From a virus: a stretch of DNA of 64,000 nt. The DNA is taken from positions 1 to 64,000 of the IMG/VR virus record IMGVR_UViG_3300046542_000168; one strand, 5' to 3'. The first letter of the stretch is position 1, and every line of letters starts with the position of its first letter. A program made the position numbers and the translations under genes. The notes beneath the pieces were generated by a model. It was not told where the DNA came from, made no database searches, and saw nothing but the letters and a program-made list of their open reading frames with translations. Positions 1,066 through 11,207 of this stretch are shown piece by piece.

Positions 1066-1579
1066 CATGCCTACCTATCCAACCCCCCAGGATAGGCGCC
1101 CCAGGTAGCTAGGCCCTCTATTAGAATGCCCCAGGTATGCGCCTGTTAGTTATCTAATAAATAACTATTAATATAGTGTCGTTAACGACACGGGTTATTC
1201 TATCCCTAGGCTATCGCCTAGCCCTATATAGTGGGGGCAGGGGCAGAAAAGCCCCCCTATTAAAAAGCTATCAATCCCACGTATTACGTGGGCTCTAGCC
1301 ATATCGTGTGGCGTTATACGCCACGTATATACATACCGCATTGCGTAGCAATGAGTTACTTAATATCCCCCTTGCATATCCCCCAGGTACTGCCCCAGGT
1401 TAGCCCCCTGGTCGGCTTACCTCTAGCCCTGGGCTAGTGTTATACCTCTATGCATAATCCCCGTATCGCAAGCGATACAGTCTATTAACTCTCTGATATA
1501 GCTATTCTCTAATGTCTGTTATTCGTGATGATGGGGTTAAGCCAACTTCCCTTGATAACAATTTAATTGTTAACTCTAG

Positions 1580-1595
1580 TGTTTCACGTGGAACA
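1580..1595. other. parS: Chromosomal-type parS site (ParB-binding palindrome)
   Basis: TGTTTCACGTGGAACA: 15/16 match to consensus TGTTTCACGTGAAACA, in AT-rich intergenic DNA. Confidence 0.8.
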
Positions 1596-1738
1596 TTAAA
1601 TTAAATAACGAATAATCGTTATTCCTGGGCCAGCCCAGGGCGATAGCCTGGGATAACCTACGGTTATAGTAGTATGGACAATGCATGCATAATGGTTATA
1701 GATTGGCTGAAAGGCCCGTATTACCTGGGCTCTAGCCC

Positions 1739-1766
1739 AGTTCGTATAATGCCCATTATGCGAACT
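1739..1766. other. dif-like tyrosine recombinase site, 11-6-11, with two XerC-type arms
   Basis: AGTTCGTATAA-TGCCCA-TTATGCGAACT; the arms are a 10/11 inverted repeat; about 430 bp upstream of the xerC-like gene. Confidence 0.75.
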
Positions 1767-1922
1767 CTGATATGTATAGCCGACCAATGGTAGCAATACA
1801 GGGGTTGACAATATTTTAAAATCATGATCCTGGGCCGGTAGAGCCAGGAGCAAGGGCGTTAAGCACCGAGCCACATATTGTTGAAAATTCAGAATTAGCC
1901 AGACCCACATATTTGCTAATTC

Positions 1923-2035
1923 CCCAGGTTCACTAGTTCTCCCAGGTAGGCTTCCCAGGTTTATAAAATTCCCAGGTAGCAGCCCCCAGGATCACGCCTG
2001 CCAGGTTTAATGGTTGCAGGTGGATATTTCCCAGG
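1923..2035 (+). repeat. Phased CCCAGG direct-repeat array
   Basis: CCCAGG at 1923, 1941, 1954, 1971, 1985 and 2030, with variants GCCAGG at 2000 and TGCAGG at 2015; spacing 13-18 bp. Confidence 0.7.
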
Positions 2036-2127
2036 CGCTACTGGTAGGGCCTCCCTGGTAGAGGCATATTTGATGTAGAAAAATGCCTATATATTTCAGC
2101 CTTAGTTGTTGGATATTCTGTTGGGGG

Positions 2128-2136
2128 TGCTATAAT
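2128..2136 (+). promoter_or_regulatory. Extended -10 promoter of the recombinase
   Basis: TGcTATAAT about 60 bp upstream of the ATG at 2198. Confidence 0.6.
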
Positions 2137-2197
2137 TACCCGTATGGAAAGAGGCACTCTGCCTCTCCCGCTTCGAAGTTCTCTGGGGAGATTTGAA

Positions 2198-3076
2198 ATG
2201 GAACTGATGAAATCGCAGGCTGAGACTTACATTGATTTTCTTCGCTTTCAGCGTTATTCCCCTGAGAATACTGTTGTTGCTAAGCAGCAGGACTTGAAGA
2301 AGGTCTATGCCCTCTGCCTGAAGAAGAAGGTGAGTTCCTGGGTAGACTTCACCCCTACCCATCTGCGTGAGTTGGTAGCAAGTGAACTTAAGGCAGGCCG
2401 TAACCCTAAGTCTGTTAACCGTCTCCTAACTACTGTGCGTACTCTGTTCAAGCATTTAAAGCGTGAGGGTTATGTGCAAGTTAACCCTGCTGATGACTTC
2501 CAGGGTCCGAAGGAAGCACAGAATATTCCAACGATCCTGGCTGTAGAAGAGTGCAGCCAGATGCTCGATGCTGAAGTGGACGGCTTCCTGGGCTACCGCG
2601 ACCAAGCGATTCTTGAGCTGTTCTACTCTGCTGCTCTGCGTCTGTCCGAGCTGGTGGGCCTGACCATGGACAAGCTCAACCTGAAGGAAGGCTATGTGCG
2701 TGTTGTGGGCAAGGGTAACAAGGAGCGCTTGGTGCCTGTTGGTGGTAAGGCTAGCGAGGCCCTGGTGCTCTGGCTGCAACACCGTAGCGGGATCAAGGCC
2801 CAGGACAACAACGTGTTCCTCTCTCACCACGGTAAGGCCCTCACTCAGCGGGCTGTACAGAAGCGTGTGAAAGCCTTCGGTCAGCAGACCCTGGGCAAGG
2901 ATCTACACCCGCATATTCTGCGACACTCTTGTGCCACACATCTGTTACAATCCACTCAGAATTTGCGGGCAGTGCAAGAGATTCTGGGTCACAAGAATAT
3001 TGCTACAACTCAGATTTATACCCACCTTGACTTGCCGTATATGCAGGGTGTTCACAAGTCTCACCCGCGTGGTTAA
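2198..3076 (+). CDS. xerC: XerC-like tyrosine recombinase
   Basis: RDQAILELFYSAALRLSEL, GKGNKERLVP, HPHILRHSCATHLL, LGHKNIATTQIYTHLD...HPR; full R-K-H-R-H-Y catalytic set; GGGGAG RBS before 2198. Confidence 0.9.
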   Translation: MELMKSQAETYIDFLRFQRYSPENTVVAKQQDLKKVYALCLKKKVSSWVDFTPTHLRELVASELKAGRNPKSVNRLLTTVRTLFKHLKREGYVQVNPADDFQGPKEAQNIPTILAVEECSQMLDAEVDGFLGYRDQAILELFYSAALRLSELVGLTMDKLNLKEGYVRVVGKGNKERLVPVGGKASEALVLWLQHRSGIKAQDNNVFLSHHGKALTQRAVQKRVKAFGQQTLGKDLHPHILRHSCATHLLQSTQNLRAVQEILGHKNIATTQIYTHLDLPYMQGVHKSHPRG

Positions 3077-3089
3077 GGGGTAAGTAATC

Positions 3090-3572
3090 ATGACTGACAC
3101 TCAGCCATCCGACTTCCTGCCATTTGATTTTGTTTATGCGGGCCAGCGTGCTTTAGAAGGTAATAAACCTGGGGCAGAGATATACAAGCTTGTTGATGGG
3201 CGGCTTGGTGATAGTTACGTCTTCGCTGCTAAGTCCCTGAAGGGTAAAGTCCTGGGTGGAATGTATCGCGGTGCGGAGTTTAGTCCCGACAAGGCTCGTG
3301 GGATTGGCTCAGCAGCTTATATTGGTCGCTGGAAAGAGATGACTGACTGTGTAATCTGGAGGGCTCGTGAAGAGGCTTTCGAGACTGCTCAGCGACTCAT
3401 TAAGTTGGAATCAGACGCTAAGAAGGTCAATGAGATTGAGGCAATCATGTTGCCCCTTAGAAAGTTGTACGCGACCTACGCACGGCAGTACGATCATGCC
3501 GGGAAAGAAGCCCTGGAGCAGGCAGTAATGCGGGCTCTACGCTCACCACCTCGTAAGAGTGAAACTGCCTAG
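3090..3572 (+). CDS. Hypothetical protein
   Basis: 160-aa ORF immediately downstream of the recombinase. Confidence 0.75.
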   Translation: MTDTQPSDFLPFDFVYAGQRALEGNKPGAEIYKLVDGRLGDSYVFAAKSLKGKVLGGMYRGAEFSPDKARGIGSAAYIGRWKEMTDCVIWRAREEAFETAQRLIKLESDAKKVNEIEAIMLPLRKLYATYARQYDHAGKEALEQAVMRALRSPPRKSETA

Positions 3573-4624: not shown

Positions 4625-4843
4625 ATGCGAACGTACCGAGTCACCCTGTTCCGAGCAGGAGAAGAACGTACCGGCCAGCCCCTACACTACCTGGGCGAAG
4701 TAGAGAGCCACCAACGGGGCGACGACGTGATTCATCAAGCCATGATGGCTCACCCGGATCTGGTGCCCCTCACCTGCACCCTGGTGGTTCGTGGTAAGCT
4801 CTGTGCTAGATGGCCAACCCTGGCTCAAGGCACGTTGCACTAA
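4625..4843 (+). CDS. Hypothetical protein
   Basis: Tightly packed co-oriented ORF. Confidence 0.6.
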   Translation: MRTYRVTLFRAGEERTGQPLHYLGEVESHQRGDDVIHQAMMAHPDLVPLTCTLVVRGKLCARWPTLAQGTLH

Positions 4844-10055: not shown

Positions 10056-10152
10056 TGGTAAGCCCTCAGAACGTTATGGTAAAATGCCATCGCAGGGTGA
10101 GCATAGCTTTGCGTTCCACAACAATTCGGGGGAAGCGTTGTGGCACCCTGCT

Positions 10153-11004: not shown

Positions 11005-11207
11005 TCGATTAATACGTCTTCTGGGTTAAAGTCTTGACCCCACACGTCCAATGCTTCTTTTAAAGTTGCATAGTAGACAACTGGAGGGGAGATATAAGTT
11101 CTGACGTACTCCCGAACACTTTCATTCATCGGTAAGTCACGCCAGAAAACAAGTTGGTCCTGGGGCAAACACTCAGGACATTGTTGCGTAGGGGTAGGTA
11201 GCGTCAT
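11001..11207 (-). CDS. Hypothetical protein
   Basis: Overlapping co-oriented ORF. Confidence 0.55.
   Translation of the reverse strand: MTLPTPTQQCPECLPQDQLVFWRDLPMNESVREYVRTYISPPVVYYATLKEALDVWGQDFNPEDVLIE

Follow-up and report, generated by a model that had tools for sequence, protein, structure and literature searches.

We analysed a stretch of 64,000 nucleotides (the window) that forms the first part of the 107,407-bp IMG/VR virus record IMGVR_UViG_3300046542_000168, here called G000; positions 1-64,000 are identical in both numberings. A locus in the window combines a parS site of the host chromosomal type, a 28-bp Xer-type core site and a gene for a XerC-like tyrosine recombinase (Table 1), and an earlier reading of the same DNA (the original prediction) had proposed that this phage may be carried as a circular episome, with dimers resolved by the phage itself. 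The parS site, TGTTTCACGTGGAACA, matches the palindrome TGTTCCACGTGGAACA at 15 of 16 positions and is the sole match at up to two mismatches in the window (0.01 expected) and at up to three mismatches across the 107-kb genome; parS half-sites are not enriched in G000. Compared with the chromosomal 16-bp palindrome tGTTNCACGTGAAACa, the site is both significant and conserved. The core site, AGTTCGTATAA-TGCCCA-TTATGCGAACT, has the 11-6-11 inverted-repeat architecture of dif, and both of its arms are of the XerC type (inner 9 bp TTCGCATAA and TTCGTATAA). It is the sole match to its pattern (0 expected), and the whole G000 genome holds no second core site and no paired half-site elsewhere. The near-consensus parS, the inverted repeat and the intact recombinase named in the original prediction were all confirmed.

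The recombinase has both Xer domains (Phage_integrase PF00589, 2e-44; SAM-like N domain PF02899, 9e-9) and aligns over its full length to E. coli XerD (1a0p). The complete catalytic set R-K-H-R-H-Y (R, K, H-x-x-R, H and Y) is kept, as it is in the alignment with Pseudomonas XerC. The closest cellular homologues are the chromosomal XerC proteins of Pseudomonas species (46-51% identity), which suggests that the host is a Pseudomonas and that the gene was captured from a host long ago. The score against TIGR02224 (XerC) is 279.7 bits, with a cut-off of 335.15, and that against the XerD model is 254 (cut-off 329.6); by this equivalog scoring the phage enzyme is a diverged XerC paralogue and not an orthologue. 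About ten XerC proteins of the phage clade, 53-86% identical, were found on contigs of 101-107.6 kb and never on longer ones.

The dif site of P. aeruginosa is GATTCGCATAATGTATATTATGTTAAAT (Carnoy and Roten 2009, PMC2731167), and both arms of the G000 core agree with its XerC arm at 9 of 11 positions, with 9 of 9 in the inner part. The XerD arm TTATGTTAAAT is absent from the entire G000 genome; G000 and a related lineage, G002, carry a second XerC-type arm instead. The arms of the G002 core are identical to those of G000, and the spacer is TCGACA instead of TGCCCA. At the homologous position of a third lineage, G007, lies TGTTCCCATAT-TAGGTA-TTATGTTAAAT, a host-type dif with a perfect XerD arm and a degenerate XerC arm, which is separated from xerC by five or six small genes. 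All three spacers differ from the dif spacer TGTATA. Arms that are kept, a spacer that is free to vary and the exchange of one Xer-site type for another at the same spot are as expected from selection on a recombination site. A search of 185,579 species genomes found the exact symmetric pattern in 33 genome contigs, all of them from archaea, Firmicutes or other metagenome-assembled genomes (MAGs); there was no match in Pseudomonas, and with it no identical chromosomal target. Judged by its pattern, the G000 core belongs to the general site class of single-recombinase Xer systems. The symmetric pattern also occurs in five further, unrelated viral contigs (Table 1). One version of the site is common to three viral contigs and lies, in the two inspected, between the antirepressor and small terminase genes; in one contig a large terminase gene is close to the palindrome. 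In G001, the palindrome and the start of a 223-aa tyrosine recombinase gene overlap, and that gene adjoins a Cro/CI-type gene.

The ends of the record share a 127-bp overlap, so the G000 assembly is self-closing. The start of the record is arbitrary, because the start of the window sits mid-way in a 67.6-kb contig of what is probably the source run, a rhizosphere metagenome. The large terminase subunit (TerL) and the major capsid protein (MCP) are about 40% identical to their counterparts in Pseudomonas phages phiPMW, called non-temperate in its own paper, and vB_PpS_SYP (SYP), classed as virulent in its paper on the grounds that it has no integrase; on these proteins, G000 is a distant relative of both. 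Other relatives were reached through TerL and DNA patterns, which gave the two further lineages of the clade in IMG/VR. G002 (105,402 bp) shares with G000 96% identity in TerL, 76% in XerC, 41% in ParA and 57% in RepL, and for G007 (106,866 bp, with an end repeat) the values are 80%, 45%, 35% and 60%. JGI contig L197 is a near-identical copy of G002, and co-conservation is accordingly counted on three lineages and one near-duplicate. A search of viral contigs with a single XerC protein found no related locus, the start of the window had no megablast match among GenBank phages, and none of the loci around 80 parS-bearing IMG/VR stretches is related to G000. Sequencing runs with small shares (X2-X4) hold contigs with diverged relatives of the non-coding region and xerC; no RNA run is among the listed holders.

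The expected co-conservation of parS, core site and xerC was found, the three being syntenic in G002 (with L197) and G007. Each lineage has one parS (CGTTCCACGTGGAACA in G002, AGTTCCACGTGGAACA in G007), with the inner 14 bp perfect; its location within a conserved non-coding region of ~900 bp does not differ among the three. The gap between parS and the core is 143 bp in G000, 155 bp in G002 and 176 bp in G007, and parS lies on the XerC-arm side of the core in G007.

The original prediction recognised no parA, parB or rep gene. This stands for the window; elsewhere in G000, about 18 kb from the Xer site, there are genes for a RepL-family protein, a ParA ATPase and a ParA partner protein (Table 1), and the argument that the phage must borrow host ParAB for lack of genes of its own is not supported. 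ParA, the partner and RepL are conserved in G002 and G007. No ParB_N gene was found in the five genomes searched (G000, G002, G007, phiPMW and SYP), so that the search of the rest of the genome for parA and parB yielded the first and not the second. The homologues of RepL are, by annotation only, found on small RepL plasmids and in phages such as Sodalis phiSG1. The ribbon-helix-helix (RHH)-like C-terminus of the partner is a sequence pattern only, its AlphaFold model being unusable (predicted local distance difference test score, pLDDT, 50). Dense non-coding repeat arrays of degenerate, short-period ATGGATCAATGG-type units flank parA on both sides; two larger arrays are in inverted orientation, each ends in GGATGTATATACAA, and they are candidate centromere or iteron arrays. 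The only good SOS (LexA) box of G000, TACTGTATATAATTACAGCG, is located between the ParA module and an MvaT-like gene beside it. G000 thus has what is looked for in a phage-plasmid, a complete phage gene set (TerL, MCP) together with plasmid replication and partition genes.

FtsK-orienting polar sequences (KOPS) are read by FtsK, that of Pseudomonas included, at the closing septum. The motif GGGNAGGG was mapped and its polarity was scored from RepL to the Xer site. In G000, 19 of 19 KOPS are consistent with divergence at RepL and convergence on the site (2 plus and 0 minus on the RepL-to-site arc, 0 plus and 17 minus on the other arc). The corresponding counts are 26 of 30 in G002 (7 plus and 0 minus; 4 plus and 19 minus) and 14 of 15 in G007 (1 plus and 1 minus; 0 plus and 13 minus). 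Pooled over the three genomes, 59 of 64 KOPS diverge at RepL/ParA and converge on the Xer site (Fisher p = 7e-8), a value that leads a set of 42 composition-matched control motifs; the runner-up reaches 4e-3. The 17 minus-strand KOPS of G000 all lie within 2353-84987 and run across gene blocks of both transcription directions; the GC-skew profile of G000 tracks transcription direction and is uninformative alone. In G002, the divergence point narrows to 39.2-45.6 kb, an interval that holds RepL and ParA. Only 2 KOPS occur in phiPMW and 5 in SYP, both virulent relatives; neither count exceeds expectation, and no polarity is seen. Convergence of KOPS on the core, as is seen for dif, argues for a site that works as a dif analogue and for DNA that dividing cells carry as a replicon, in other words for a plasmid prophage. 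Such polarity could be used to recognise an episomal prophage lifestyle from sequence alone.

Table 1. Positions of features in G000 and of parS and symmetric Xer-type sites in other virus sequences
Sequence	Feature	Position	Strand	Remarks
G000	Host chromosomal-type parS, single copy	1580-1595
G000	Spacer between parS and core, possible accessory region on the XerC-arm side	1596-1738		143 bp; putative role
G000	28-bp Xer-type core, 11-6-11	1739-1766
G000	xerC-like tyrosine recombinase gene	2198-3076	+	292 aa from likely true start 2198; 310 aa from alternative start 2144
G000	Plus-strand KOPS	100817	+
G000	KOPS-type motif GGGCAGGG	1235-1242	+	Invariant in G000, G002 and G007; final plus-strand KOPS left of the site, ~500 bp away, pointing at it
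G000	First KOPS right of the site	2353-2360	-	Points back at the Xer site
G000	RepL-family gene	89178-89675	+	PF05732, 5e-10
G000	ParA partner protein gene	89779-90372	-	197 aa; directly downstream of ParA; basic N-terminus, Pro/Gln-rich linker, RHH-like C-terminus
G000	Repeat array	90380-90760
G000	ParA ATPase gene	90763-91542	-	ParA families; PHROG ParA-like
G000	Repeat array	91560-92400
G000	SOS (LexA) box	92923-92942
G000	Array of five short palindromes/hairpins, upstream of parS	1176-1478		1176-1191, 1276-1292, 1308-1324, 1339-1353, 1463-1478
G000	Conserved non-coding block upstream of xerC	1805-1875	+	TTGACA-like hexamer 1805-1810; near-invariant 34-nt stretch 1842-1875
G000	C-terminal part of open reading frame cut by the record start	1-747
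SYP (OQ183418.1)	6 parS	294, 963, 4266, 6222, 7655, 107116		Three are perfect palindromes
XD2 (PQ288046.1)	4 parS	17313, 28552, 54779, 55391
Kassivere (PP496416.1)	3 parS	60345, 62377, 66408
phiPMW (KU862660.1)	3 parS	15422, 20515, 20735
vB_PseuGesM_254	2 parS
L019	Symmetric palindrome	10117-10144
L021	Symmetric palindrome	11126-11153
L022	Symmetric palindrome	1299-1326
L020	Symmetric palindrome	1778-1805
L017	Symmetric palindrome	4704-4731

The gene content (ParA, partner, RepL and SOS box), the co-conserved parS, core site and xerC and the converging KOPS together make it very probable that this phage is maintained as a circular episome whose multimers are resolved at the 28-bp site by the phage's own XerC, in line with the original prediction. 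On balance, we also think it probable that the stretch is a terminus-like maintenance module of a plasmid prophage, with dimers resolved by the phage XerC at the core, the phage's own ParA as the main partition device and parS as an auxiliary. In such a prophage, the DNA would replicate as a low-copy circle from the RepL region and be partitioned by its own ParA system, and homologous recombination would generate dimers. At division, host FtsK would follow the KOPS polarity and bring the two Xer sites together, and the phage XerC would form a homotetramer on the two XerC-type arms, in the manner of XerS, XerH, XerA or Cre, and resolve the dimer. On the asymmetric site of G007, the phage enzyme may pair with host XerD.

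In P. aeruginosa, ParB has high affinity for perfect and one-mismatch parS sites, and a plasmid is stabilised when it has parS along with parAB (Jecz et al. 2015, PMC4368675). Because these phages have no ParB gene, host ParB is the likely reader, and docking of host ParB is the likely role of the G000 site. The original prediction took parS for part of a candidate plasmid-maintenance module. Counted as matches to TGTTNCACGTGNAACA at up to one mismatch, however, 2-6 host-type parS (18 in total; Table 1) occur in each of five virulent relatives of G000 (SYP, XD2, Kassivere, phiPMW and vB_PseuGesM_254), from all of which XerC, ParA and RepL are absent, and a specific maintenance role is therefore not supported. 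The reversed-pattern control gave 0 matches in every relative genome scanned, and the Limnohabitans, P. syringae, Shigella and Erwinia phage relatives have 0 parS. The sites of SYP, XD2, Kassivere and phiPMW are mostly intergenic, several of them directly behind terminator-like hairpins. In IMG/VR as a whole, the perfect chromosomal palindrome is present in at least 120 stretches, compared with 3 for a reversed palindrome of equal composition, and 45 of 47 tested parS-bearing records have no ParB_N gene, although some records may include host flanks. In the part of the literature searched, there is no account of host-type parS in Pseudomonas phages, nor are these features described for phiPMW, for SYP or for the P. 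putida phage collection. We therefore best read parS as a host-ParB docking trait that would have been inherited from the wider lineage; what appears specific to the clade is that a single copy is left, in a fixed place next to the Xer site. There, ParB docking could provide a reserve centromere, help to position the DNA, silence the xerC promoter region locally or assist synapsis at the site as an architectural factor.

Several points weigh against the proposed maintenance module. FtsK is known to act through XerD, and the sites of G000 and G002 have no XerD arm, so FtsK dependence would rest on the precedent of the XerS and XerH type. The presence of parS in virulent relatives means that its link to the Xer site could be inherited synteny only. 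The control motifs reflect a weak background GC skew that accounts for part of the strand bias, the three genomes scored for KOPS are related and their patterns are not fully independent, and the two arcs are very unequal (~20 and ~87 kb). The clade is known from metagenome assemblies alone, its extrachromosomal state being read from sequence, and a search of PLSDB by TerL found no relative. Finally, G000 carries a full virulent-style replication set. The polymerase, primase-helicase and ribonucleotide reductase (RNR) named in the original prediction were found in the window, the polymerase being of family A and both RNR subunits being encoded, and ARAGORN gives 18 tRNAs and not 21.

The last of the roles listed for parS can be carried further. 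Host ParB docked at parS, at a distance of 143-176 bp on the XerC side of the core, might be an architectural factor, with ParB-ParB bridging of the two parS copies in a dimer synapsing the two Xer sites and biasing the reaction to resolution, as ArgR/PepA do at cer. We judge this unlikely, though worth keeping in mind: if true, it would be a direct mechanistic link from a chromosome partition protein to Xer recombination, exploited by a phage-plasmid.

There are several alternatives to the proposed module. In one, the version of the original prediction, host ParAB (and SMC, the structural maintenance of chromosomes complex) would do most of the segregation of the episome by acting on the single parS, the region 1500-3100 being a stabilising centromere plus resolution site. 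The high-affinity type of the site, the lack of a phage ParB, the plasmid stabilised by parS and parAB in P. aeruginosa (PMC4368675) and the retention of parS in all three lineages fit this. The clade has, however, a conserved ParA, a partner and repeat arrays of its own, and host-type parS is equally present, in more copies, in virulent relatives that have no plasmid genes; we rate host-driven segregation as improbable.

Equally low is our estimate for the locus being an integration module, with the XerC-like enzyme as integrase and the 28-bp site as attP for insertion at or near host dif, similar to an integrative mobile element exploiting Xer (IMEX) but with its own enzyme. A tyrosine recombinase does adjoin a single dif-like site here, PHROGs groups the protein with integrases, and diverging KOPS would be tolerable for an insert at dif too. 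The idea is least improbable for G007, the site of which has the perfect host XerD arm. An IMEX in the strict sense has no recombinase of its own and offers a dif-like attP to host XerCD; G000 encodes a Xer-type recombinase, and no matching attB was found in Pseudomonas among the 185,579 species genomes, all 33 matches to the symmetric site coming from elsewhere. Integration would also have to account for the conserved ParA and RepL, for spacers (TGCCCA, TCGACA, TAGGTA) unlike that of dif, and for the clade XerC homologues never being found on contigs longer than ~107.6 kb.

A purely lytic function is, to our mind, no better placed, and we would be surprised if it were correct. Here the recombinase would circularise terminally redundant DNA or monomerise replication products, and there would be no plasmid state, ParA and RepL having their use in lytic replication or in positioning. 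The virulent-style gene set agrees with this; Cre-lox can do likewise for P1, in which RepL is the lytic replicon. Against it, KOPS polarity implies FtsK at the division septum and the virulent relatives are without such polarity, and an SOS box and an MvaT-like gene stand beside the ParA module.

That the parS of G000 is no ParB site at all, and instead a chance match or the operator of a phage regulator, is very improbable: it occurs once, its half-sites are not enriched, and the T at half-site position 5 is absent from P. aeruginosa chromosomal half-sites (PMC4368675), but only 0.01 matches are expected, the syntenic copies of G002 and G007 have no mismatch over the inner 14 bp, the 18 further sites in relatives contrast with 0 for the reversed control, and the same T variant stands beside perfect sites in SYP, XD2, Kassivere and vB_PseuGesM_254.

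The remaining features of the region concern its non-coding DNA. The stems of the five hairpins upstream of parS are preserved by symmetric, compensatory changes across the three lineages (alignment A1), for example GTATCGCAAGCGATAC / GTATGGCTGGCCATAC / GTATTGCTTGCAATAC, and Rfam has no match in 700-2300; the array could be a structured RNA, a set of single-stranded DNA signals or an origin- or pac-type region. The conserved block upstream of xerC (alignment A1) has its G007 counterpart ahead of the inserted small genes. A consensus promoter scan gave no convincing xerC promoter and did not call the TTGACA-like hexamer. CCCAGG and CCTGGG occur 143 and 114 times in G000 (~26 expected) and CCCCAGG 34 times (6.6 expected); many copies lie within intergenic hairpins such as GCCCCTGGG...CCCAGGGGC, as in the window region 100-2050. 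Pro, Gln and Lys abound in the truncated open reading frame at the beginning of the record, which has 'PQ(A/G)K'-like repeat units and no match in Pfam or PHROG.

The nearest likenesses to the proposed maintenance module are the single-recombinase systems XerS/difSL of streptococci, XerH/difH of Helicobacter and Campylobacter and XerA/dif of archaea, in which, as in G000, one Xer enzyme is linked to its own site of the 28-bp class with two similar arms, one per replicon. XerS and XerH are reported to be FtsK-dependent, which matches the KOPS convergence of this clade, and the exact symmetric pattern of G000 occurs in archaeal and Firmicute genomes. Unlike these enzymes, that of G000 is a phage-borne, diverged XerC of the Pseudomonas type that falls outside their families by score, and its host is expected to retain XerC, XerD and dif of its own. 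Cre/loxP of P1 is likewise the recombinase and single symmetric-arm site of a phage-plasmid, used for multimer resolution and able to serve circularisation. Cre belongs to another recombinase lineage, however, and the geometry of loxP is 13-8-13 and not 11-6-11; P1 is not known to make use of FtsK and KOPS or to have a host parS next to loxP, and relies on its own ParB/parS.

The sites cer (ColE1), psi (pSC101) and chromosomal dif share the 11-6-11 core with a XerC-type arm, and G007 has the full XerC/XerD-type core. The accessory sequences of cer and psi, about 180 bp with bound architectural proteins, are on the XerC side of the core; in the clade, a stretch of 140-180 bp with a site of protein-binding type (parS) would be a possible counterpart. 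The likeness to dif/XerCD/FtsK lies in KOPS that converge on the site. Unlike cer and psi, the locus has its own recombinase gene and, in G000 and G002, no XerD arm, and the candidate accessory protein would be ParB in place of ArgR/PepA (cer) or ArcA.

Among elements that use a foreign partition protein, Bacillus phage phi29 likewise has chromosomal-type parS, five sites read by Spo0J, and no ParB, and it exploits the host protein for Spo0J-dependent entrapment in spores, in the outline of Meijer et al. 2005 given in PMC2731898. G000 differs in its Gram-negative, non-sporulating host, in having a single site fixed by a Xer site and in having its own ParA system. The mobile element SGI1, as far as the outline in PMC10954446 goes, carries a parS of the IncC plasmid ParABS and so borrows the ParB of another replicon through a centromere; the lender is a helper plasmid and not, as here, the chromosome. 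Host-type parS across virulent Pseudomonas phages, together with its strong over-representation in viral contigs, extends the phi29 precedent to Gram-negative, non-sporulating hosts, and its recurrence leads one to ask what a phage might use ParB docking for.

Phage-plasmid multimer resolution, single-recombinase Xer systems and host parS of the phi29 type are already known kinds. New, as the sequences present it, is the combination of a captured and apparently re-targeted XerC, a genome-wide KOPS polarity and a fixed pairing of parS with the Xer site. These features define a clade of ~105-kb phage-plasmids of the Pseudomonas type, so far from metagenomes only, among relatives described as virulent, from which it is set apart by RepL, ParA and its partner, the XerC paralogue with its site, and the genome-wide KOPS polarity. 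The pair offers a clean comparison of a virulent-type phage lineage with a plasmid-prophage lineage, and a XerC re-targeted to a symmetric site lets one follow, as in a natural experiment, how the heterodimeric XerCD system may turn into a single-recombinase one.

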